From positions 6,510 to 70,509 of the forward strand of contig DATDXY010000001.1 in assembly GCA_036517155.1 (NCBI GenBank): DNA of 64,000 nt. The letters run 5' to 3'. The stretch is from Minisyncoccota bacterium (GTDB lineage Bacteria > Patescibacteriota > Minisyncoccia > UBA6257 > 02-FULL-45-10c). How positions within the stretch are numbered: the stretch's first letter is position 1; every line of letters begins with the position of its first letter. Position numbers and translations under genes: made by a program. A model generated the notes under the pieces. The model did no database searches, was not told the origin of the DNA, and was given only the letters and a program-made list of their open reading frames with translations. Of the stretch, positions 5,994 through 62,833 are shown one piece after another.

Positions 5994-7625
5994 TTAAGAT
6001 TTTACTAAATGATCAAAAGAATATTGTAAGTTCCCATTCACTTTTTTACCTGGATTAAAAATATTTTGGGGATCAAAAATTTTTTTGGTTTCTTCAAACA
6101 TCAGGTAAATTTTTTCGCCATACATCTTTTCCAAATATGGCGTGCGAATCAAACCGTCATTGTGCTCGGCGGTAATGGAACCCTTATATTCCACCACGAG
6201 ATCATATACTTCATGGGAAAGCCGATCAATAATATCTCGCGTATCCGACTTACTCACATCCATCAGCGGAATAATATGGAAATTCGCATCTCCCACGTGG
6301 CCGGCAATGGTATAGATTAAATTGTATTTGTCCAAAATAGAATTTAACCGAGGCAGAAATTCCGGTAATTGTTCCACATGAACCGCAAAATCGTCAATAA
6401 ACGGCGCCGTTCTTTTCCCTTTAATGTGTTGACGTAACAAATTGAAGCTTTCCCGTCGAATAGTCCAATATTTTTTTGCCTCATCCGGATCCGCTACCAC
6501 CCGAAAGGGCACGTGTAATTGTTCCAACTTGGATTGCAACTTTTTCAGACGATGAGCAATTTCAAAATCTTCATCGCCGGTAAACTCCGCTAATAATACT
6601 AATTTCGGCAAACCGCCGGTTAATACCATTTTCATTTCCGGAATAAAATCCCACGCCATTTTCAAAAGATTTTTTGGCTTCAGCACTTTTAATAAACTAG
6701 GCAAGAACCGCAACGCCAATTTCAGGGTATGATCATCATACGATTCAAAACTTTCTGGTTTGAATTCCATCACCGCTTGGGCAACGGGCACCAACGGTTT
6801 CAAATCTTTCAAAAAAATTACCACCATTTGGGAATGCAATTTGGGCCGAATCAAATGGAATTTAATTTCCGTGACTAATCCCAGCGTTCCTTGGGATCCA
6901 ACTAACAATTTAGTGAGATCAAAACGTTCGCCATCCCACACGTTCCATAAATAATAACCGGCGGAATTTTTGGATACGTTGGGTTTAGCGCTCTTTAACA
7001 GGGCCTGATTTTTACTGATTAACTGATACAGTTTTTTATAAATCCCGCCTTCAAAACTTTTTTCTTTGATTTTTTTGTCTAATTCTTTTTTAGAAAGCGC
7101 CTTAATGCTATATTCATTGCCATCGCTCCAAACCATTTTTAATTCCTCAACATAATTTTCTGTTTTGCCGTAAGCCAACGTTTTTTCCCCACCAGAATTA
7201 TTGGAAACCATTCCACCGACCGTGCAAATTTCCCGCGAAGCCGGATAACTGGGCATCAATAATTTCCGCTTCAGTGATTCTTTTTCAAAATCCCGATAAA
7301 ACACCCCGGGTTGCGCTACTCCGTAATCCGTCCCAAATCCGCGGATTCGATTAAAATGCTTGGTAAAATCCACCACGATGGATTCCGTGAGCGGGCCGCC
7401 GGTCATATCCGTTCCTCCGGAACGCGCGGTGAGAGATAATTCCGGATGCTGTTTTTTCTGCGCGCTGACAAACTTAACCAACTGTTTTACGTCTTCAACG
7501 TCTCGCGGTGCCACTGCGGCGGACGGCATCACTTCAAATAAACTGGCATCGTGGCTATAAATTTTCAACGCTGTTGCGTCGGTAAGTATTTCTCCTCGAA
7601 AATTTTTTTTCAGTTCATCCAACAT
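5994..7625 (-). CDS. FAD-linked oxidoreductase, GlcD / D-lactate dehydrogenase family.
   Basis: N-terminal FAD_binding_4-like region (AVAPRDVEDVKQLVKFV...ARSGGTDMTGG) and FAD-oxidase C-terminal region. Confidence 0.7.
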   Translation of the reverse strand: MLDELKKNFRGEILTDATALKIYSHDASLFEVMPSAAVAPRDVEDVKQLVKFVSAQKKQHPELSLTARSGGTDMTGGPLTESIVVDFTKHFNRIRGFGTDYGVAQPGVFYRDFEKESLKRKLLMPSYPASREICTVGGMVSNNSGGEKTLAYGKTENYVEELKMVWSDGNEYSIKALSKKELDKKIKEKSFEGGIYKKLYQLISKNQALLKSAKPNVSKNSAGYYLWNVWDGERFDLTKLLVGSQGTLGLVTEIKFHLIRPKLHSQMVVIFLKDLKPLVPVAQAVMEFKPESFESYDDHTLKLALRFLPSLLKVLKPKNLLKMAWDFIPEMKMVLTGGLPKLVLLAEFTGDEDFEIAHRLKKLQSKLEQLHVPFRVVADPDEAKKYWTIRRESFNLLRQHIKGKRTAPFIDDFAVHVEQLPEFLPRLNSILDKYNLIYTIAGHVGDANFHIIPLMDVSKSDTRDIIDRLSHEVYDLVVEYKGSITAEHNDGLIRTPYLEKMYGEKIYLMFEETKKIFDPQNIFNPGKKVNGNLQYSFDHLVKS

Positions 7626-53108: not shown

Positions 53109-53651
53109 TTAATAAGTAAATGCTTCGGCTTCAGTAAATGGAAAAAGTCGGACCCGAACTAAACCGACAACATTTTCCCGAGGCAATATTCCCCAACTCC
53201 TAGAATCATAACTATAATTGCGATTATCACCCAACACAAAATATTCTCCGGGCGCAAGCGCTTGGTCAGTATTGCCGATTGTTCGGATACCAGGAGTTAA
53301 ATAAGATTCGTTCAATTGAAAACCCTCGGGGGAGACATCATTATAAATAGTCACAAACCCATCTCGAACAATTACTCGTTCTCCCGGCAAACCAATGACC
53401 CGTTTGATATAATATATTTTTGGATCTTCTGGATAACGAAAAACCACAATTTCCCCTCGTTGCGGTTCTCGAAAACGGTAGGAAATTTCATCAATTAATA
53501 AATAATCGCCAGTGGAAAAACCAGGCTCCATGCTGGCACCGCTTACTAAAAATGGTTGGACTAAATAGGTCCTAATAACAAATACCGTCACCACAGCTAC
53601 TGCCACCACCTCAATCACTTCCCACACCGATAAGAGAAATTGCTTCATCAT
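53109..53651 (-). CDS. lepB: Signal peptidase I.
   Basis: VSGASMEPGF (catalytic Ser box) and downstream Lys box. Start placed at MMKQF to avoid overlapping the divergent pth start. Confidence 0.8.
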   Translation of the reverse strand: MMKQFLLSVWEVIEVVAVAVVTVFVIRTYLVQPFLVSGASMEPGFSTGDYLLIDEISYRFREPQRGEIVVFRYPEDPKIYYIKRVIGLPGERVIVRDGFVTIYNDVSPEGFQLNESYLTPGIRTIGNTDQALAPGEYFVLGDNRNYSYDSRSWGILPRENVVGLVRVRLFPFTEAEAFTY

Positions 53652-53687
53652 ATACACAATATTCTTACATTTTAGTACAATCAGTGT

Positions 53688-54167
53688 ATGCTCGCAAGCC
53701 AACTAGATATTCGTTTAATTTTCGGCATCGGGAATGCCGATGCCGCTTATCATCGAACCTATCACAATGTGGGGATTTTAATGGCGGAATACTTGAAAAA
53801 ATCGATACCGGAACGAGCAAATCAAACCCATATAAACAAGGGTTTTATGAATGTTGTAGGAAAAGAAGTCGCTCGCGCATTGAAGAAAAATCACATAGCA
53901 CCGACGCACCTGCTTGTCATCCATGATGATTCAGATATCCCATTGGGCCGCTTTAAATTGTCTTTTGACCGGAATTCCGCTGGCCATAAAGGAATAGAAA
54001 GCATTATTCAATCTCTAAAAACCAAAGCTTTTTGGCGATTACGGATAGGAATCCGAGCGCTTCGCAATACTCGGCCAGCAGAACAGTTCGTGCTGAAACG
54101 CATTACTGCCGCTCATCTTAAACAATTAGAAACTGTATTTGCGTCCGCGCTCCGACCGTTACAGTAA
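53688..54167 (+). CDS. pth: Peptidyl-tRNA hydrolase.
   Basis: LIFGIGNADAAYHRTYHNVG (catalytic His region) and D in VIHDDSD. Confidence 0.8.
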   Translation: MLASQLDIRLIFGIGNADAAYHRTYHNVGILMAEYLKKSIPERANQTHINKGFMNVVGKEVARALKKNHIAPTHLLVIHDDSDIPLGRFKLSFDRNSAGHKGIESIIQSLKTKAFWRLRIGIRALRNTRPAEQFVLKRITAAHLKQLETVFASALRPLQ

Positions 54168-55664
54168 TTGAAAACTGATCACAAAAGAAACTGTGCCTTC
54201 CGAATTATCCAGTACGTCGGCTGGCTTTAAGTCCGTTGATTTTATCCCATTCGCTTCGGCAAGTTTGTTTTTAAAATTTACAATAGTTGTCCGGCTTGTA
54301 GCTTTGCCATTTAACACGCCAGTCGTATGGTCGCTATTAACTATGATGGCAGTGACAGTAATAGAGGAATTTTGCGCAATTTCAAGAATGGAGTGAAAGA
54401 CCGGTAAAAAATCGTTGGATTCAATTTTTGCGGCCAACGCTCGTTGGGCCAGCGTATTAAATTCAACCGCTTTTTGCACCAATTCATTCATTTCTCTAAC
54501 AGCTGGATTAGCATCTAAAGCTTGCAAGTCATTTTCAATGACTTGTTCCGTTTTCCATAAAAAACCGTCACTTACTACAAACACCAATACCAAAAAACCT
54601 AGCGTGGTAATCGTAATGCTTTCCCATAATTTTACAAAGGATTTAATTTCATTGTGGGAAAATTGTTCTTCCGTATCTACCGGAGAAAGGCTGATAAAAT
54701 TATCCTCCGATCTTGGAATCAATCCCCGTAACGCGCTGCCACAGGCAACATACCAAGAAGCCGGTAAATCGGAAAAATCGCGCAGTTGCAACGATTTTAC
54801 TTCTATTGATGGAAAGGCTTCTTTAATGATTTTTTCAATTTCTTGATAAAGACCGTGCGTCATCAGCGTTAATTGTGTCGCTTGACCGCCCCAGTGGCTG
54901 CTGTAAAAAGTGAATATTTTTTTCATTTCTTGAATTAAAATCTGATTAAAAACATTCAATAGAATTTCCCGGGAATCCTGACTGACGCCGCCCTTGATAG
55001 ATGACCAAGAAACAAAATAACTGAAATATACATTACCATCCTTTACAATCAGAAAATCTAATCCGTCTCCGGAAACCGAAAGGGTAACTTGGGGCTTCTT
55101 TAAATCAATGCCTACGGATTGCATTTTAATTACTCGGCTTATGGCCAAAGAAGGGAACTCTACCGCCGCGGCTATAAAACCCGCTTGTTCCAGTGCTGTC
55201 AAGAATTCGTCCACTACCGGTTTAGCAACGAATGCTCCCAAAAGCTCAATTTTATTTCCTTCCTGACCATCACTCAAACGTTCCCAATCCGCATAGGATG
55301 TTTGCGCATCAACCGGTGATAACATTTGCAGATTCAATGCAGCGGCTTCTTTGATATTAGCTTCGTTTAAAATCGGCAAAGAAAATGCTTGGGTATATAT
55401 ATGATTCGGCGGCAAAGATAAAATCACGGAAATCGTATCTCGAGAACGCCCTAATTGTTCTTTCAAAGACACCAATGCCTGCAAAAATTGCTCAACATTT
55501 TTTAATTGGCCATCCTCAATTACTCCGGCATCCAAACTTACACCTATTTTTTTCAATTCTTTTCCCTGTAATTCTACAAAACGAATCGCTGCGTCGCTAA
55601 TTTCCAAACCGCCTATGGAAAGTTGCGGTTTTAACAATGCGCCAAGATTTTTTAAAAACGGCAT
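54159..55664 (-). CDS. pilM: Type IV pilus assembly protein PilM (actin-like) fused to a PilN-like TM/periplasmic segment.
   Basis: N-terminal ~330 aa actin-like fold (LSIGGLEISDAAIRFVEL...), then a TM helix (LGFLVLVFVVSDGFLW), then a ~130-aa coiled/alpha-beta tail. Last gene of the pilus operon. Confidence 0.6.
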   Translation of the reverse strand: MPFLKNLGALLKPQLSIGGLEISDAAIRFVELQGKELKKIGVSLDAGVIEDGQLKNVEQFLQALVSLKEQLGRSRDTISVILSLPPNHIYTQAFSLPILNEANIKEAAALNLQMLSPVDAQTSYADWERLSDGQEGNKIELLGAFVAKPVVDEFLTALEQAGFIAAAVEFPSLAISRVIKMQSVGIDLKKPQVTLSVSGDGLDFLIVKDGNVYFSYFVSWSSIKGGVSQDSREILLNVFNQILIQEMKKIFTFYSSHWGGQATQLTLMTHGLYQEIEKIIKEAFPSIEVKSLQLRDFSDLPASWYVACGSALRGLIPRSEDNFISLSPVDTEEQFSHNEIKSFVKLWESITITTLGFLVLVFVVSDGFLWKTEQVIENDLQALDANPAVREMNELVQKAVEFNTLAQRALAAKIESNDFLPVFHSILEIAQNSSITVTAIIVNSDHTTGVLNGKATSRTTIVNFKNKLAEANGIKSTDLKPADVLDNSEGTVSFVISFQLL

Positions 55665-56098: not shown

Positions 56099-56986
56099 TT
56101 ATTGACCCCAAGTCACAATTATGTCCGTTACTTCCGGCGCTAAATCGACACCCCAAGTGGCCGATTCTAAAATCGCCTTATAACGAAAATACCGGTGATT
56201 GCTATGGTAAACGAACGACAATTGCACCGGATCATCCGGTCCAGTCGGCACATAATAATCATCCGATAAACCATTAGGACCAATAAAACTCCACGGGCCA
56301 TTTTCATTATTAGAAGAAGCAAACTGAAATTTAACGTTAGTACCAATCGGTTTCTGTCCTCGATACATCAAGCTGTAAAATGCCACTGGCGATCCCGCAT
56401 CATAAGTACTGGATTCAACTGTTGCGGCAGTGGACGAAATAGTAGCGGTAGTTTTGACTTTATAATTCGAGGTGGCGCAAGTTCCAGTATTGGTACAATT
56501 AAAACTAATCCAGCCAATAATATCATTCCAAGCAAAACCGCTAAAATTTCCGCTGCCATCAACCGTTACCTGATAATTTGAGGTAGCGCAGGTATTAGTA
56601 TTGTCTGGCGACGGGGTCCCATCACTAGTATGATCGCAATTAAAACTCACCCAGCCAATCGCGTCGTTCCATCCCCAACCAGACAAATTACCATCACCGT
56701 CATTAACCACTTTATACGGTATTGTGCAATTGCTGCCTGGCGGGCCAAAAGCGCAATTTAGAGAAATAAATCCTACTGAAGAATTCGCATAACCGCGCAA
56801 TTCATTAGCCAGAACTTCAACATTAGGATTACTAGAATATTGAAAATCAATCCAACTAACAATGTCATTCCATGCCCATTTATCGGTCGCGTCAATATTG
56901 GGAGCGGCATATACCACCACACCCACACCAAGCAACATGATCGCGCTTATTATCCATACTATTTTATTATTTATTTTGTTCTTCAT
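56099..56986 (-). CDS. Signal-peptide protein with three W-N-D-x-I-G/S-W-x-S/D-F-N-C repeats; pilus-associated, function unknown.
   Basis: Start taken at MKNKINNK. Repeats WNDIVSWIDFQ...NC, GWGWNDAIGWVSFNCDHT, GFAWNDIIGWISFNCTNT. Embedded in the pilus operon. Confidence 0.45.
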   Translation of the reverse strand: MKNKINNKIVWIISAIMLLGVGVVVYAAPNIDATDKWAWNDIVSWIDFQYSSNPNVEVLANELRGYANSSVGFISLNCAFGPPGSNCTIPYKVVNDGDGNLSGWGWNDAIGWVSFNCDHTSDGTPSPDNTNTCATSNYQVTVDGSGNFSGFAWNDIIGWISFNCTNTGTCATSNYKVKTTATISSTAATVESSTYDAGSPVAFYSLMYRGQKPIGTNVKFQFASSNNENGPWSFIGPNGLSDDYYVPTGPDDPVQLSFVYHSNHRYFRYKAILESATWGVDLAPEVTDIIVTWGQ

Positions 56987-56987
56987 T

Positions 56988-57650
56988 TTAAGGATAAGTG
57001 TAACCGGAAATTCTGATTGCTCCGGGGCTTGTTGTAATATCAACGTTCCCGGATCCGATAAAATAACGACTTCCAAAATCCAACACCGGTCCGGCCGTAG
57101 CGCCGCCGGCTGACCAATCAGTTTGTTTGGCAATTTTCGGTCCCCAACGAGTAAGATAACTAGAAATTTCTAAATGACCAGGCTGGCTCGGCACATCCCA
57201 ATCAACGCCAACAACAATTTTTTGGGTGGAAGGGTCTTCCCGAGACGGCGTGAAGGTTGATTCGATATCGCCATTCCCATCTCGAGAAACATTTTCTAAA
57301 TAGAAATAACGTCGATACGTAATGCCATTGACCACCAATGATTCTTCCGCGCCTTGATTAACAATAAATTGACCGCCCGAAACAGTAAGATAGTTTTTTT
57401 TTGCCAAATCCAGTGGAGGTGCTTTGGGCAATGCATAAACCACCGACCATTGGGCTTCAGAAAATGCGCGCGCATTATCCAACAAGCCATTAGCAAATGA
57501 ACCAGCGGCTTGGTTTTGTTCATTAGAATTTCCAGATCGCAACACCAAAAAAAGCGAACCGGTTGCGGCACTGATCATTATAATGCTGATCCCCAAACCA
57601 ATCACTGCTTCAATTAACGATTGGCCTCGATTATAATACTGCTTAATCAC
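56988..57650 (-). CDS. Pseudopilin / minor pilin (prepilin-type N-terminus).
   Basis: NRGQSLIEAVIGLGISIIMI: G|QSLIE class III signal with Glu+5. Confidence 0.6.
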   Translation of the reverse strand: MIKQYYNRGQSLIEAVIGLGISIIMISAATGSLFLVLRSGNSNEQNQAAGSFANGLLDNARAFSEAQWSVVYALPKAPPLDLAKKNYLTVSGGQFIVNQGAEESLVVNGITYRRYFYLENVSRDGNGDIESTFTPSREDPSTQKIVVGVDWDVPSQPGHLEISSYLTRWGPKIAKQTDWSAGGATAGPVLDFGSRYFIGSGNVDITTSPGAIRISGYTYP

Positions 57651-57665
57651 TACCTATAGTATACC

Positions 57666-58160
57666 CTAGGAATCCACAACCTCAATCAATCCATTGTTAG
57701 AAATGTTAATAGTTTTGGAATCTCCGCCACCAATTTGGGTAATAGTGATGGTTTGATTGCCACCTTCTGGGGCCCCGTACAACTTAGAAAAAATAATATC
57801 CAAAGCGGCTCCTCCTTGAGCTGGGACCGTGAATTCCACTGAATTCGGTAATACAATCCGGTTGACCGAATTGATTGTTGTGCATACATTGCAATAAAAA
57901 ATCGTATAAGAATCATCACCGCCACTTTGGGCTTCTATCCGAACTCCCCACTTCGCGGATACCCCCAATGCCGGACCAATTTCTTGAGTAATCGATTTTT
58001 GCTGGGTGTCCCGAATATAATTCGCTAAAGATGTTGCTGTACTTTTTAAATCTTGCGCTCTTTTAAAACCGCCGAAGTTAGTCACTCCTATGCCGCCCAG
58101 TATTACGATAATTCCAATCACTACCATCAGCTCGGAAACGGTAAAACCTCTTTTTTGCAT
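57666..58160 (-). CDS. Pseudopilin / minor pilin.
   Basis: MQKRGFTVSELMVVIGIIVILG: G|FTVSE with Glu+5. Confidence 0.65.
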   Translation of the reverse strand: MQKRGFTVSELMVVIGIIVILGGIGVTNFGGFKRAQDLKSTATSLANYIRDTQQKSITQEIGPALGVSAKWGVRIEAQSGGDDSYTIFYCNVCTTINSVNRIVLPNSVEFTVPAQGGAALDIIFSKLYGAPEGGNQTITITQIGGGDSKTINISNNGLIEVVDS

Positions 58161-58173
58161 ATGTTTTTTTTAT

Positions 58174-59385
58174 TTAGACACTACCTACTAATTGATAAAT
58201 CGGGACAACAATCGCCAATGCAATGCCGCCAATCATAATACCGATAAAAAGCAAAAGAATCGGTTCGATAAACGTCACCAAGCTTTTGACCGAGGTATCG
58301 ATTTCAGATTCATAAAAATCCGCCAGCGTTCGCAAAATATCTTCCGTATGACCGGCTTTTTCGGAAATCGAAATAAGATTGACGATCACTAACGGAAAAG
58401 ACGGTTCTCGGCGAAACGCCTCTCCTACCGTTAAACCCTTGGCAATTCCTTCCCGCGCAATGCGTTGTAAACTTTCTTTATATTCATCTGAGCCAACCGC
58501 ATCCGCGGTAATTTCCAAGGAATCTAAAATCGGCATGCCGGCCTTAATCAAGGAAGAAAGCGTGCTGGCGAATCGCTGCAGCGCCATTTCTTTTAAAACT
58601 TTGTTGATTATCGGCAATCTATAAAAAATTCTTAACACTACTTGCCGATTGACGGGTATCTTCATTAAGAAAAACCAAAGCGTAACTCCTCCGATTGCAA
58701 TACCGGGTAAAATGAAAAAGATATATTGATTCAAAAATAAACCGACACCAAACACAATTCTGGAAAAAAGCGGCGGTTCAAATCCGGTGCCGGTAAATAC
58801 ATTGGCAATTTTTGGCAACGCAAAACTAACTAAAAGGATAAGAATTAAAACTGATAAGCCAAGAAGGATAATTGGGTACACCAGCGCAGCTCTTACTTTA
58901 TTCCGTAATTCCTGCTCTTTTCCCAGGGTGGCGCTGAGATTTAAAAAAACCGTCTCTAAATTACCCGAAGCTTCTCCGGATTTAACCAAATTAACAAATA
59001 CGGAAGAAAAATATTGAGGGTATTTCGCAAATGTAGAATAAAATGGTTGCCCCTTTTCTAATGTTGATCGAATTTCAATAAGAAATGCTTTTAAGATTGG
59101 CTTATCAAAATCTTTAATTAATACGTCAATGGCTCGAAATAAATCGGTGCCGGCCTTTAACATTAGGGATAGGTATTTGGTTAAAAAAATCTTATCCGCA
59201 ATGGTAATCTTTTGTCCGAACAATGCCTTGGATTTAATTACTTCCGCCTCTTTATAAACTTTTAAAGAAATTGGCCGCAATCCCTGGCCCGCAAGAAAAC
59301 TTAGAACTTCGTCAGAATTCTGAGCTTCTACATCACCCTGTAACATTCTGCCGCTGGAATCAGAGGCGGTATAAGTAAATTTCAT
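58174..59385 (-). CDS. pilC: Type IV pilus platform protein PilC (GspF family).
   Basis: Two T2SS_F repeats, 3 TM segments. Typical 403-aa layout. Confidence 0.85.
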   Translation of the reverse strand: MKFTYTASDSSGRMLQGDVEAQNSDEVLSFLAGQGLRPISLKVYKEAEVIKSKALFGQKITIADKIFLTKYLSLMLKAGTDLFRAIDVLIKDFDKPILKAFLIEIRSTLEKGQPFYSTFAKYPQYFSSVFVNLVKSGEASGNLETVFLNLSATLGKEQELRNKVRAALVYPIILLGLSVLILILLVSFALPKIANVFTGTGFEPPLFSRIVFGVGLFLNQYIFFILPGIAIGGVTLWFFLMKIPVNRQVVLRIFYRLPIINKVLKEMALQRFASTLSSLIKAGMPILDSLEITADAVGSDEYKESLQRIAREGIAKGLTVGEAFRREPSFPLVIVNLISISEKAGHTEDILRTLADFYESEIDTSVKSLVTFIEPILLLFIGIMIGGIALAIVVPIYQLVGSV

Positions 59386-59397
59386 AAAAAATTGCTA

Positions 59398-61131
59398 TTA
59401 CTCTCGAATTACCCGTAATACTTCGTCAATTGAAGTCATACCTCGCTCGGCTTTAATCAGACCATCTTCAAACATTGTCCGCATCCCCTGTTGCCGAGCT
59501 AGAACCCGCAAACCGTCTAAATCAAATGTTGGACTAACAATCAATTGGCGAATTTCATCATTAAACTCTAATGCTTCAAAAATTCCCATTCGACCTTTCA
59601 AGCCGCTATGCCCGCAAGACTTGCAACCCTTGCCTCGATATAAAAGTTTTGGTACTTTTACATTTTTTTCAATCCCCAATTCCTTTAGCTGCTTCTCAAT
59701 AATATCCGTGGTAGCTTGATCTGCTTTATACGATTCTATGCAGTCCAAACAAATTCGCCCCACCAAACGCTGGGCAACAATTACATTTAATACCGCGGAA
59801 ACCAAAAAGGCCGGGATTTTCATATCTAAAAGCCTGGGCACTGCCGTCGATGCGTCATTAGTGTGGATGGTGGACAGCACTAAGTGGCCAGTTAATGCCG
59901 CATTCACGGCAATATCCGCCGTTTCTAGATCTCGAATTTCTCCGACCATAATAATATTTGGATCTTGGCGAAGGAGCGAACGCAAACCGCTGGCAAAAGT
60001 AATGCCAGCTTGAGCATTGACTTGAATTTGATTTACATACTTCACGCTATATTCAATTGGATCTTCAATGGTGGAAATATTGACTTCCGGTCGATTCAAA
60101 ATATTCAGAACCGAGTATAAAGTAGTGGTTTTACCCGATCCAGTCGGACCACATACCAGCACCATGCCGTAGCTTTTTTTGATATTTTCCCTGACTATTT
60201 TTGCCGTGTCTTCCAACATTCCATCTTCTTCTAGGGAAACCGGCTTTTGGGTCGCAGCGAGCAAACGCATTTCAATTTTCTCTCCGAAGTAAGTCGGGAT
60301 GATAGATACCCGCAAGTCCACTATTTCCGAACCGAGTTGCTGACGAAAACGACCATCTTGCGGCTTAGAGTGTTCATCCAGCTTTAATCCAGCCAATAAT
60401 TTAATCCGCGCGACAATCGATGGGTGCACTTCTTTCGCAATTCGAATGAACTCGTGCAAAATACCGTCAATTCGATAGCGAACTAAAACGCCATCTTCTA
60501 ATACTTCTAGATGAATATCTGAAGCCCGGCTGGAAACGCCATATCCAATCAAAGTATCCACAATAGCGACAATCGGTAATTCCACCGCGGCTTCTTCCGC
60601 GCCAGATGCCCGCGAACGAAATGAAGCGGCAATATTTTCTTCAATAACGCGTTTGAATTCTTCCGTTGAGCCTCGGCTATATAAAGTGAGACCCTGATTA
60701 AGATCCGTTTGAGATGCTAAAAAGATTTTTAAATCTGCTTTTAAATAACGTTTTAAAAACTCAATAGTTTCTAAATCACTCGGATCTTCAATGGCAATTT
60801 TTAGAGCGCCGTCTGAGTCTTGACCAAATACGATTACTCGTTTTTGCCGCGACAAATCTTCCGGCAATAACCGTAGGGACTGTTCATCAATGCTTTTTTC
60901 ATCTAAATGCGCTTTGGGAACGCCAAAATATTCCGCCAGTAAATCCGAAAAATAATTCTCAGAAATAGTCCCTCGAGAAATTAAAATATCAGAAATATTT
61001 TGCCCCATTCGCTTGGATTCCTGGGTAATCGCATCAAAATCCACCTCGGTGATTAAACCTTCTTTGATCAGCGCTTCTTTTAATTTTTGATCTGGAATTT
61101 GCATTACTAATTTTTTACGTATGGAAAACAA
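59398..61131 (-). CDS. pilB: Type IV pilus assembly ATPase PilB (GspE family).
   Basis: Walker A GPTGSGKTT, Asp box, His box, Walker B. C-terminal tetracysteine (CLDC...CKSCGHSG). Confidence 0.9.
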   Translation of the reverse strand: MFSIRKKLVMQIPDQKLKEALIKEGLITEVDFDAITQESKRMGQNISDILISRGTISENYFSDLLAEYFGVPKAHLDEKSIDEQSLRLLPEDLSRQKRVIVFGQDSDGALKIAIEDPSDLETIEFLKRYLKADLKIFLASQTDLNQGLTLYSRGSTEEFKRVIEENIAASFRSRASGAEEAAVELPIVAIVDTLIGYGVSSRASDIHLEVLEDGVLVRYRIDGILHEFIRIAKEVHPSIVARIKLLAGLKLDEHSKPQDGRFRQQLGSEIVDLRVSIIPTYFGEKIEMRLLAATQKPVSLEEDGMLEDTAKIVRENIKKSYGMVLVCGPTGSGKTTTLYSVLNILNRPEVNISTIEDPIEYSVKYVNQIQVNAQAGITFASGLRSLLRQDPNIIMVGEIRDLETADIAVNAALTGHLVLSTIHTNDASTAVPRLLDMKIPAFLVSAVLNVIVAQRLVGRICLDCIESYKADQATTDIIEKQLKELGIEKNVKVPKLLYRGKGCKSCGHSGLKGRMGIFEALEFNDEIRQLIVSPTFDLDGLRVLARQQGMRTMFEDGLIKAERGMTSIDEVLRVIRE

Positions 61132-61752: not shown

Positions 61753-62355
61753 TTACAGATTTAAACCTGGATCAGTTCCAATTTCATAGATTGACTCAAG
61801 ATCACCGCCATCTTTTGCATTCGATTCTACATCATCACCGCCAGTGGTAGAGTATCGAGTACTTTCCATGTTTGCGTTCAACTCAAACGTTTTGTTTGTG
61901 TTGTCACAGGCATAGCTGAAGTAATAGGTAGTATCGTTAATCGGATCAACTGGCAAGGATGCAAGAGGCGCGCCTCCTGGAATCGCTGCTAAGTTTACCG
62001 GAATCCAACCATTACCATCGCTTTCTCGGGTAGTATCAATAGTTGTGGTTTTCGTTGATGTTGCGTGACGAAGCTGTCCACAGTTTGCGCCAACCCCAGA
62101 TGCTCCAGTGAAACACATCGTTGAACAACTTAACGCACCAGTAAAATCTAAGTCCGGATTAGAAACGGTCGCTGTATATAAACCGATTGCGCTACGCATA
62201 GAGCTCATATTCTCAACTCGTTGGGAATCTCGAGCTTGCCGGAATAATTCTGCCGGGTTTAATACTAATACCGTTACTGTTCCTAAAATCGCTAAAATAC
62301 CGATAACGATTAAGAGTTCCAATAATGTGAAACCTCTTTTTTCTGTGTTAATCAT
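61753..62355 (-). CDS. Type IV major pilin candidate.
   Basis: KRGFTLLELLIVIGILAILG with Glu+5. 200 aa with a C-terminal Cys pair. First gene of the operon, behind a sigma-70-like promoter. Confidence 0.75.
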   Translation of the reverse strand: MINTEKRGFTLLELLIVIGILAILGTVTVLVLNPAELFRQARDSQRVENMSSMRSAIGLYTATVSNPDLDFTGALSCSTMCFTGASGVGANCGQLRHATSTKTTTIDTTRESDGNGWIPVNLAAIPGGAPLASLPVDPINDTTYYFSYACDNTNKTFELNANMESTRYSTTGGDDVESNAKDGGDLESIYEIGTDPGLNL

Positions 62356-62426
62356 AAAATTAATAATTTATTGGGACCTTTTTAATGTAAGTCTATTATA
62401 TCAAACGCTGCGGTATTCACAATTTC

Positions 62427-62461: not shown

Positions 62462-62833
62462 TTAATTGAGGATTTCTTTTACTTTCCCGATTAAAAAATC
62501 AATGGAAATATTCGCTTTCACAAGATAATCCGTTGCTCCCAATTCTTTGCCGCGGGCAATATCACTGTCTTGTCCTAAATTAGAAATAATAATAATCGGA
62601 GTTTTGGGTATTTGCGGATCCGCTTTAATATCTTCCATTACTTCAAATCCGGATTTACCCGGTAAAATCAAATCCAATAAAATTAAATCCGGCTGGCTTT
62701 TTTTTAGAGCTGCTAATGCGGCGCCGCCATCTTTTACTAGCTCCACTTCAAAACCTTCTTTCTGGATTCGGTTATGAAGCAAAGATGATAAAAATTGGTC
62801 ATCTTCAATAAGTAAAATCTTGCGCATAGACAA
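62462..62833 (-). CDS. Single-domain response regulator (CheY-like).
   Basis: KILLIEDD, phospho-acceptor in LILLDLILPG, T/S and K (IISNLG..., YLVK) conserved. Confidence 0.75.
   Translation of the reverse strand: MSMRKILLIEDDQFLSSLLHNRIQKEGFEVELVKDGGAALAALKKSQPDLILLDLILPGKSGFEVMEDIKADPQIPKTPIIIISNLGQDSDIARGKELGATDYLVKANISIDFLIGKVKEILN

Follow-up and report, generated by a model that had tools for sequence, protein, structure and literature searches.

A secreted repeat protein of Paceibacteria pilus operons, probably the detached head of a split minor pilin

Paceibacteria and the other bacteria belonging to the Candidate Phyla Radiation (CPR) are ultra-small, represent a considerable fraction of bacterial diversity and are assumed to spend their lives attached to host cells; type IV pili are the best candidates for their attachment and uptake organelles. 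To our knowledge, almost nothing is known of the cargo of CPR pili outside the Saccharibacteria. In Pseudomonas, Neisseria and Myxococcus, the proteins called PilY1 or PilC are presumed to be seated on the complex of minor pilins, with roles in the priming of assembly and in adhesion. In this report, we analyze a 64,000-nucleotide stretch of DNA from a Minisyncoccota bacterium (positions 6,510 to 70,509 of contig DATDXY010000001.1, hereafter the window), and within it one gene of a type IV pilus operon, located at 56099-56986 on the minus strand. Its product, which we call the target, is a secreted-type protein of 295 residues with tandem repeats built around a Trp-Asn-Asp (WND) motif.

Three kinds of described protein come closest to it. 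The modular pilins of Streptococcus sanguinis bear an extracellular module, of the von Willebrand factor A (vWA) type in PilB and a lectin in PilC (PMC8179133). Orthologs of the target in which it is fused to a pilin (P0061, P0066, P0121-P0214) resemble them in carrying an extracellular module on the C-terminus of a minor pilin, whereas the module of the window is a separate polypeptide exported by the Sec pathway, without sequence relation to the vWA or lectin module. With PilY1/PilC the target shares its being a non-pilin with an ordinary signal peptide encoded among minor pilin genes, but it lacks the PilY1-type beta-propeller (Pfam Neisseria_PilC). Finally, PilX1 and PilX2 of the Saccharibacteria strain TM7x are minor pilins with C-terminal lectin-like domains and no predicted PilD signal, proposed to be glycan-binding tip adhesins (PMC11623550); compared by description only, they differ from the target in belonging to Saccharimonadia, in the beta-propeller of PilX2 and in that no WND repeats are described for them. 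The target belongs to none of these three groups, and the 'Pam pilus' of a CPR preprint, a donor-strand-exchange pilus of Saccharimonadia and Microgenomatia, is unrelated. A head domain associated with a minor pilin is an established concept; the domain family, the dimorphism between split and fused forms and the docking mode proposed below are undescribed.

Our main conclusion is that the type IV pilus of Paceibacteria probably has a modular minor pilin split over two genes, with the target as its detached head. Association with the pilus is strongly supported by comparison of sequences, because the operon position of the gene is conserved in 80 loci and at least 53 clusters of proteins join it to a pilin. 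The initial annotation had gone one step further and suggested a pilus-tip adhesin. Its pilus part stands on the synteny and the fusions just mentioned; location at the tip and a function in adhesion or ligand binding we only infer, three points in their favor being that the partner is like a minor pseudopilin, that the C-terminal jelly roll is of a carbohydrate- or ligand-binding type, and that the protein is acidic and Trp-rich.

Operon position of the target and its fusions to a minor pilin

The features on which the argument turns are the following, all on the minus strand.

56099..56986, minus: target gene; ATG at 56986, TAA at 56099-56101; open reading frame (ORF) and translation, 295 residues
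56906..56986, minus: Sec-type signal peptide, residues 1-27, MKNKINNKIVWIISAIMLLGVGVVVYA followed by AP; Lys-rich n-region, hydrophobic core and VYA cleavage motif
56822..56905, minus: repeat 1, residues 28-55; motif WAWNDIVSWIDF at 37-48; without Cys; strands 31-40 and 44-47 in the structural model
56717..56821, minus: repeat 2, degenerate, residues 56-90; motif GYANSSVGFISLNC at 65-78; pair Cys78-Cys87
56576..56716, minus: repeat 3, residues 91-137; motif WGWNDAIGWVSFNC at 104-117; pair Cys117-Cys133, which encloses a loop of variable length
56444..56575, minus: repeat 4, residues 138-181; motif FAWNDIIGWISFNC at 151-164; pair Cys164-Cys170
56102..56443, minus: C-terminal beta-sandwich, residues 182-295; predicted jelly roll with a galactose-binding-domain-like fold
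56988..57650, minus: upstream minor pilin, 220 residues; prepilin-type N-terminus MIKQYYNRG^QSLIE (here and below, a caret marks a cleavage site)
56991..57125, minus: C-terminal tail of this minor pilin, residues 176-220, the proposed docking element; QTDWSAGGATAGPVLDFGSRYFIGSGNVDITTSPGAIRISGYTYP

The ORF announced by the initial annotation is intact, and the protein is laid out as a signal peptide, a module of four WND repeats and a C-terminal beta-sandwich. All of its homologs (n = 339) are named hypothetical. One deposited protein, a hypothetical protein from a metagenome-assembled genome of Candidatus Paceibacterota, is identical over 279 residues and starts in NCBI at Met17 (window 56938). 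On sequence grounds we prefer the ATG at 56986, which sits 1 nucleotide past the stop codon of the upstream minor pilin gene, because it yields a normal Sec-type signal peptide, agrees with the length of the homologs and with their AxA^(A/S)TNI consensus, and gives the 1-nucleotide spacing. The start at Met17, with a product of 279 residues, is less likely since the charged, Lys-rich n-region of the homologs would be lost. A long TTG-started ORF at 56099-57133 was rejected as the gene, since part of it runs through the gene of the upstream pilin in a different frame, and an in-frame fusion or read-through between target and pilin is ruled out in the window, the two frames being different.

The signal peptide of the initial annotation, read by eye, is consistent with the sequence: the family shows a hydrophobic segment and then AxA^(A/S)TNI, and cleavage would take place before (A/S/T)NI. 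Neither a prepilin (class III) leader nor a match to N_methyl or TIGR02532 was found in the target, whose sequence would thus place it outside the type IV pilins and pseudopilins.

To assess conservation of the locus, one genome per species was scanned, and 358 genomes held a relative of the target; the synteny counts are from the 80 best, species-level loci. All 358 genomes are labelled Patescibacteria or as Paceibacteria-type groups, namely Wolfe-, Lipton-, Harrison- and Colwellbacteria, Minisyncoccia and Parcubacteria. The order PilB, PilC, pilin, minor pilin, target, small pilin-like protein, PilM/N is essentially invariant in the 80 loci and is repeated on independent contigs. Of the 54 loci with enough flanking sequence, 51 have PilC upstream on the same strand; PilM/N lies downstream of the target in 53 of 67, and a small protein of the 138-residue type directly downstream in 45 of 67. 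The minor pilin is next to the target in 58 loci and fused to it in 7. The target is nearly always single-copy and beside genes of the pilus machinery, and its repeats are present in the orthologous pilus loci, where their absence would have spoken against a pilus protein. The gene had initially been placed between pseudopilins and a PilX-like gene; this position is correct, but 'PilX-like' reflects only the look of an N-terminus, with no profile match behind it.

The link to the minor pilin is physical in some relatives. Among the first 120 homologs, two (P0061 and P0066, 480-486 residues) begin as a prepilin-type minor pilin, G^QSLIE, and run into ...TNID..WAWND. In such fusions the signal peptide of the target is missing, and the junction falls exactly at its predicted cleavage site (TNI). 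A search with P0061 found at least 53 clusters (90% identity, 460-540 residues) that cover at least 93% of the pilin-target fusion; they come from NCBI, JGI, ENA and Logan, and the annotation of several reads prepilin-type N-terminal cleavage/methylation domain-containing protein, PulJ or PulG. An artefact of gene calling or assembly is unlikely because 53 clusters stem from several sources. When a rough neighbor-joining tree was built from the shared region, fused forms were interspersed among split ones, with about seven changes of state; fusion or fission therefore seems to have occurred repeatedly, although the tree is only indicative. A covalent module on the C-terminus of a pilin, the mark of a modular pilin, is thus found in the fusion clusters (at least 53), but not in the window, where the module is encoded by a separate ORF in another frame; the window version is the split form of a modular minor pilin. 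In two proteins of about 439 residues (P0074 and P0189), an N-terminal PF13366 domain is joined to the target with the signal peptide of the latter still in place, which suggests merged gene calling and not a real fusion.

A structural model of fusion P0061 made with AlphaFold2 (AF2) has a mean predicted local distance difference test (pLDDT) score of 87.5 and shows a classic pilin lollipop followed by module and sandwich: alpha-1 helix (25-79), pilin beta-sheet (96-182), two short tail strands (204-218, pLDDT 90-95), short disordered linker (223-227), module, sandwich. The tail is conserved in 39 of 60 split minor pilins by a strict motif search, always 37-44 residues from the C-terminus. In pilins P0236, P0283 and P0302, the tail, QTDWSGG...STNI...L.L, runs directly into the N-terminal part of the sandwich, and the sole WND module is nested in the sandwich loop after FQFASSN, which in long homologs of the target (see below) houses a second module. 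Since tail and sandwich are contiguous in these three proteins, they appear to belong together.

We propose the following sequence of events. Export of the target would follow the Sec pathway, with the signal peptide cut off before (A/S/T)NI. The mature protein would fold into a disulfide-braced module of four WND beta-meander repeats and a jelly-roll-like beta-sandwich, and would then bind the minor pilin encoded just upstream. Docking would most likely involve the conserved 40-residue tail of that pilin (QTDWSGG...STNI...GxIxI), the part that is contiguous with the sandwich in single-chain relatives. The pilin, a low-abundance pseudopilin-like subunit, would carry the head onto the pilus, probably at its distal end, where the head might have a conserved role in contact or priming, most plausibly by binding a surface glycan or another conserved ligand. 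The predicted jelly-roll fold, disulfide loops and Trp-rich acidic surface fit a role in binding glycans or surfaces and speak against one in binding DNA.

The WND module and the C-terminal sandwich

The three motifs quoted in the initial annotation are all present, at residues 37-48, 104-117 and 151-164, and their similarity is far above chance. For this comparison, the family alignment A1 (101 sequences: the target and 100 homologs) was sliced into units that were compared profile against profile with hhalign. Repeats 3 and 4 match with an E-value of 9e-25, repeat 1 matches repeat 3 with 4e-12 and repeat 4 with 8e-14, and repeat 2 matches repeats 3 and 4 with about 1e-9. The count of three therefore holds for the canonical copies (WAWNDxIGWISF) and misses a fourth, degenerate unit (GYAxSSvGxISLxC) between the first and the second of them. 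Two further details changed. The unit is not a motif of about 20 residues but is about 38-47 residues long, a beta meander in the AF2 model, with three strands in units 2-4 (YKVV / NLSGWGWN / IGWV in unit 3) and two in unit 1. Nor does each copy end in a Cys: copy 1 has none, and the 'NC' ascribed to it is Cys78 of degenerate copy 2. The motifs are nearly invariant among the 100 homologs.

Cysteines occur in pairs within units 2-4. Among the 101 sequences, Cys78 is invariant and Cys87 is found in 98, so that both are present in 98 and the other 3 differ. For the pair 117/133, both residues are found in 77 sequences, neither in 21 and a mixed state in 3; for 164/170, both in 92, neither in 2 and other states in 7. 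Such co-varying pairs fit three predicted disulfide-closed loops, whose lengths range from 4 to 17 residues over the family. From these data we defined the WND module by the core [WYF]-[AG]-W-[NS]-[DE]-x-[IVY]-G-W-[IVL]-[SD]-F, in four tandem units of which unit 2 is degenerate and units 2-4 have a Cys pair; this is an uncurated family defined in the present analysis, and the target conforms to it.

One idea was that repeat number varies among orthologs as in the stalks of adhesins. Single repeats do not vary in this way, and we reject the idea: regular-expression counts of 2-4 reflect degeneracy of the motif, and the true variation is between one and two whole four-repeat modules. In long stand-alone homologs of 430-470 residues (P0004-P0019), the sandwich loop that follows FQFASSN (query residues 225-234, about 56285-56314 of the window) houses a second complete module. 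Since the module thus acts like an insertable unit, its termini probably lie close together.

The AF2 model of the target has a pLDDT of 90.4 and a predicted template modeling (pTM) score of 0.75, and within the sandwich the pLDDT ranges from 93 to 98 at residues 191-270 and from 86 to 96 over the 25 C-terminal residues. At the level of fold, the predicted sandwich is a jelly roll that superposes on galactose-binding-domain-like proteins and carbohydrate-binding modules (CBMs). These jelly rolls (CBM6/32/36/61, discoidin/F5-8C, ephrin-receptor ligand-binding domain) have 4-18% identity to the target and no profile match. Likewise, podovirus tail nozzle or tail tubular protein B (Pa223 9nwi_Y, GP4 8jov_A, T7 gp12) is similar in fold only, with 15-16% identity over about 140 of some 500 residues, and differs from the target in that the latter has no functional or genomic link to phages.

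That the repeat family was not recognized initially agrees with all searches made of curated families in Pfam, NCBIfam and the Protein Data Bank (PDB), and a confident match to a known non-pilus family, which would have contradicted a pilus role, was found in none of the three. Pfam and NCBIfam scans were empty for repeat and sandwich, whether with the target, the 101 family members, multi-repeat relatives or a tail-sandwich chimera; in particular, no sequence-profile membership in a CBM, discoidin or other Pfam family was detected for the target, the 101 members or the chimera. Sequence and profile searches of the PDB returned nothing beyond one chance lipocalin match (E = 0.46), and Foldseek with the target model gave no PDB match at E<1e-3. 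The choline- and cell-wall-binding repeats (CW_binding_1) presumably resemble WND repeats as aromatic-rich Gly-Trp beta-hairpins of secreted, monoderm-type proteins, but they are 20 residues long, as opposed to about 40 residues with a predicted disulfide loop, and none of the 101 family members matches CW_binding_1 at E<=0.1. A full-text literature search for 'GWISF' found no relevant paper on the motif.

The module is not confined to the target family. A module-only profile (A2) was searched against a library of 1.84 billion representatives, clustered at 50% identity, and matched 7,530 clusters at E<=1e-3 and 3,750 at E<=1e-10; in the 64-kb window it matched only the target (E = 2e-66). Carriers include proteins of 174-3,269 residues; in some, as many as nine single-unit repeats occur (P0217, with 'GYAWNENLGWIDF', is one), and the repeat is combined with PKD, LamG, IPT/TIG, DUF2341 and Lcl-C domains. 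Other pilins carry the module too: at loci L028 and L076, pilins with the repeat module only, at their C-terminus, are followed by a separate target gene, and at L004 (4225-5613) a pilin has the module after two Ig-like (Big-type) repeats, recognized by eye only. One large carrier, P0284 (3269 residues; MBI9085453.1), is a DUF1566-domain giant assigned to a Desulfobacterales metagenome-assembled genome, with a module match of E = 2e-43; the module may extend beyond Patescibacteria, or this contig may be mis-binned.

The other genes of the cluster

The pilus cluster genes of the window are all co-directional. Besides the target and the minor pilin, they comprise the following.

62395-62422: promoter-like site, the best of the region, just upstream of the major pilin gene; 10 of 12 matches with an extended TG, a consensus match only
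61753..62355, minus: probable major pilin, 200 residues; leader MINTEKRG^FTLLE; N_methyl (E = 1e-6) and TIGR02532
61115..61708, minus: polytopic membrane protein, 197 residues, between the major pilin gene and pilB; no Pfam match
59398..61131, minus: PilB-type assembly ATPase, 577 residues; T2SSE (E = 1e-115) and MshEN
58174..59385, minus: PilC-type platform protein, 403 residues; T2SSF (E = 6e-52)
57666..58160, minus: pilin-like protein, 164 residues; leader MQKRG^FTVSE; N_methyl and TIGR02532
55674..56090, minus: small pilin-like protein, 138 residues; hydrophobic N-terminus MKFTSYRG^IAALP without Glu5; no profile match
54159..55664, minus: PilM-PilN fusion, 501 residues; PilM_2 at 19-181 (E = 7e-5), PilN at 449-500 (E = 0.009) and TIGR01175

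GspH and PpdA-type models match only the N-terminal 60 residues of the pilin-like protein at 57666-58160. Orthologous loci encode PilM-PilN proteins of similar size, about 490-530 residues. No prepilin peptidase is recognizable among the pilus cluster genes; the 197-residue membrane protein, which keeps the same position in many orthologous loci, could be a divergent prepilin peptidase or a new accessory component.

A gene for a single-domain response-regulator receiver, identified by eye at 62462-62833 on the minus strand, immediately precedes the pilin genes. Such a gene is also found in this position at the orthologous locus L003 (936-1340; Pfam Response_reg), and the receiver may regulate the pilus cluster. 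On the other side, about 0.5 kb beyond pilM/N, lies a signal peptidase I gene (53109-53702, minus strand; Peptidase_S26, E = 8e-46), syntenic in L001 and L002 and separated from pilM/N by a peptidyl-tRNA hydrolase gene on the opposite strand. Its product is the enzyme expected to process the signal peptide of the target, and is probably a housekeeping copy.

The two pilin genes upstream of the target encode proteins that vary between species from about 150 to 1248 residues (L001 1240-6984; L004 4225-6999; L013, L040 and L083). They gain fn3, DUF1554 and Laminin_G_3 modules while the target stays at about 290 residues, and they look like the variable, possibly host-specific adhesins of the system.

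Alternative roles and significance

Several observations weigh against a detached, ligand-binding head. Conservation of the target is strong and even: the mean column entropy is 1.2-1.5 bits whichever domain is considered, a pattern that host-specific adhesins do not share and that fits a structural or priming head better. The size-variable proteins with LamG and fn3 domains are the adjacent pilins, not the target. The WND module is not restricted to pili, since large surface proteins of various kinds carry it, in about 7,500 clusters. The signal peptide was recognized by visual inspection alone. Lastly, the stand-alone sandwich is modeled at very high confidence without the pilin tail, so that complementation in trans is not required by the model.

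This last point bears on a more specific form of the proposal, which we put forward tentatively and regard as possible but rather doubtful: the pilin tail would supply the first strands of the jelly roll in trans and thereby clip the Sec-exported head onto a type IV pilin, the WND module being inserted in the sandwich. We know of no description of strand complementation in trans as a way to load cargo on type IV pili. Docking of the target on the tail remains the form of contact suggested by the contiguity of tail and sandwich in single-chain relatives.

The even conservation just cited is what a conserved priming or capping factor would show. Adhesion would then not be the task of the target, which would instead nucleate or cap the complex of minor pilins to allow pilus assembly, in the manner of PilY1 with minor pilins in Myxococcus, and recognition of hosts or ligands would be left to the variable LamG/fn3 pilins. 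Its near-constant single copy beside the machinery genes agrees with such a role, as do the size range and lectin-type domains of the neighboring pilins, and its Sec-type signal peptide recalls the discussion, in the TM7x paper, of PilY1-like priming of polymerization (PMC11623550). The C-terminal fold, however, is of the ligand-binding jelly-roll type, and many surface proteins outside pili, which also have adhesin-type domains, make use of the repeat module. We hold priming or capping to be a serious rival, somewhat unlikely as the whole explanation, and one that may coexist with binding.

A component of the machinery or envelope outside the filament, for example a conduit through the wall or an alignment protein standing in for PilO, PilP or a secretin in this cell type, is a good deal less probable. 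The target gene does lie directly upstream of pilM/N and of the gene for a small membrane-anchored protein, and the aromatic-rich hairpin repeats recall, we assume, those that bind cell walls (the Pfam scan being negative). Yet no Pfam match to PilO, PilP, secretin or CW_binding families was found, and the role is unlikely because the target is recurrently fused to a bona fide prepilin-type subunit, its module being grafted on other pilins too.

Still more improbable is a pilus-borne DNA receptor for natural transformation, comparable to ComZ/PilA2 of Thermus or ComP of Neisseria. Two articles (PMC10187176, PMC11623550) present CPR bacteria as naturally competent and discuss type IV pili for DNA uptake, and conservation would be expected for a generic ligand. 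Against this, no DNA-binding family was matched in the Pfam and NCBIfam scans, and the mature target is strongly acidic (isoelectric point 4.26, with 11 K+R versus 25 D+E; family median 4.47), so that the role is unlikely on grounds of charge. Least credible, and already disfavored, is a generic secreted surface protein that came to lie in a pilus operon by chance: its module does occur in thousands of other extracellular proteins, but the synteny extends across Wolfe-, Lipton-, Harrison- and Colwellbacteria and Minisyncoccia, the gap to the upstream pilin gene is 1 nucleotide, and the fusion clusters number at least 53.

The detached head of a split minor pilin is therefore the reading that we retain as probable. 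This study points to one uncharacterized family that is present almost universally, and in single copy, in the pilus operon of Paceibacteria, and dozens of natural fusions tie this family physically to a specific minor pilin. The family alignment is a ready seed for a new domain family, whose repeat module recurs, uncurated, in thousands of CPR surface proteins. If the pilin tail does complete the sandwich in trans, the WND module would represent a new extracellular binding fold, spread across Patescibacteria in about 7,500 clusters and absent from curated families, and may be the conserved element by which Paceibacteria pili contact the host.

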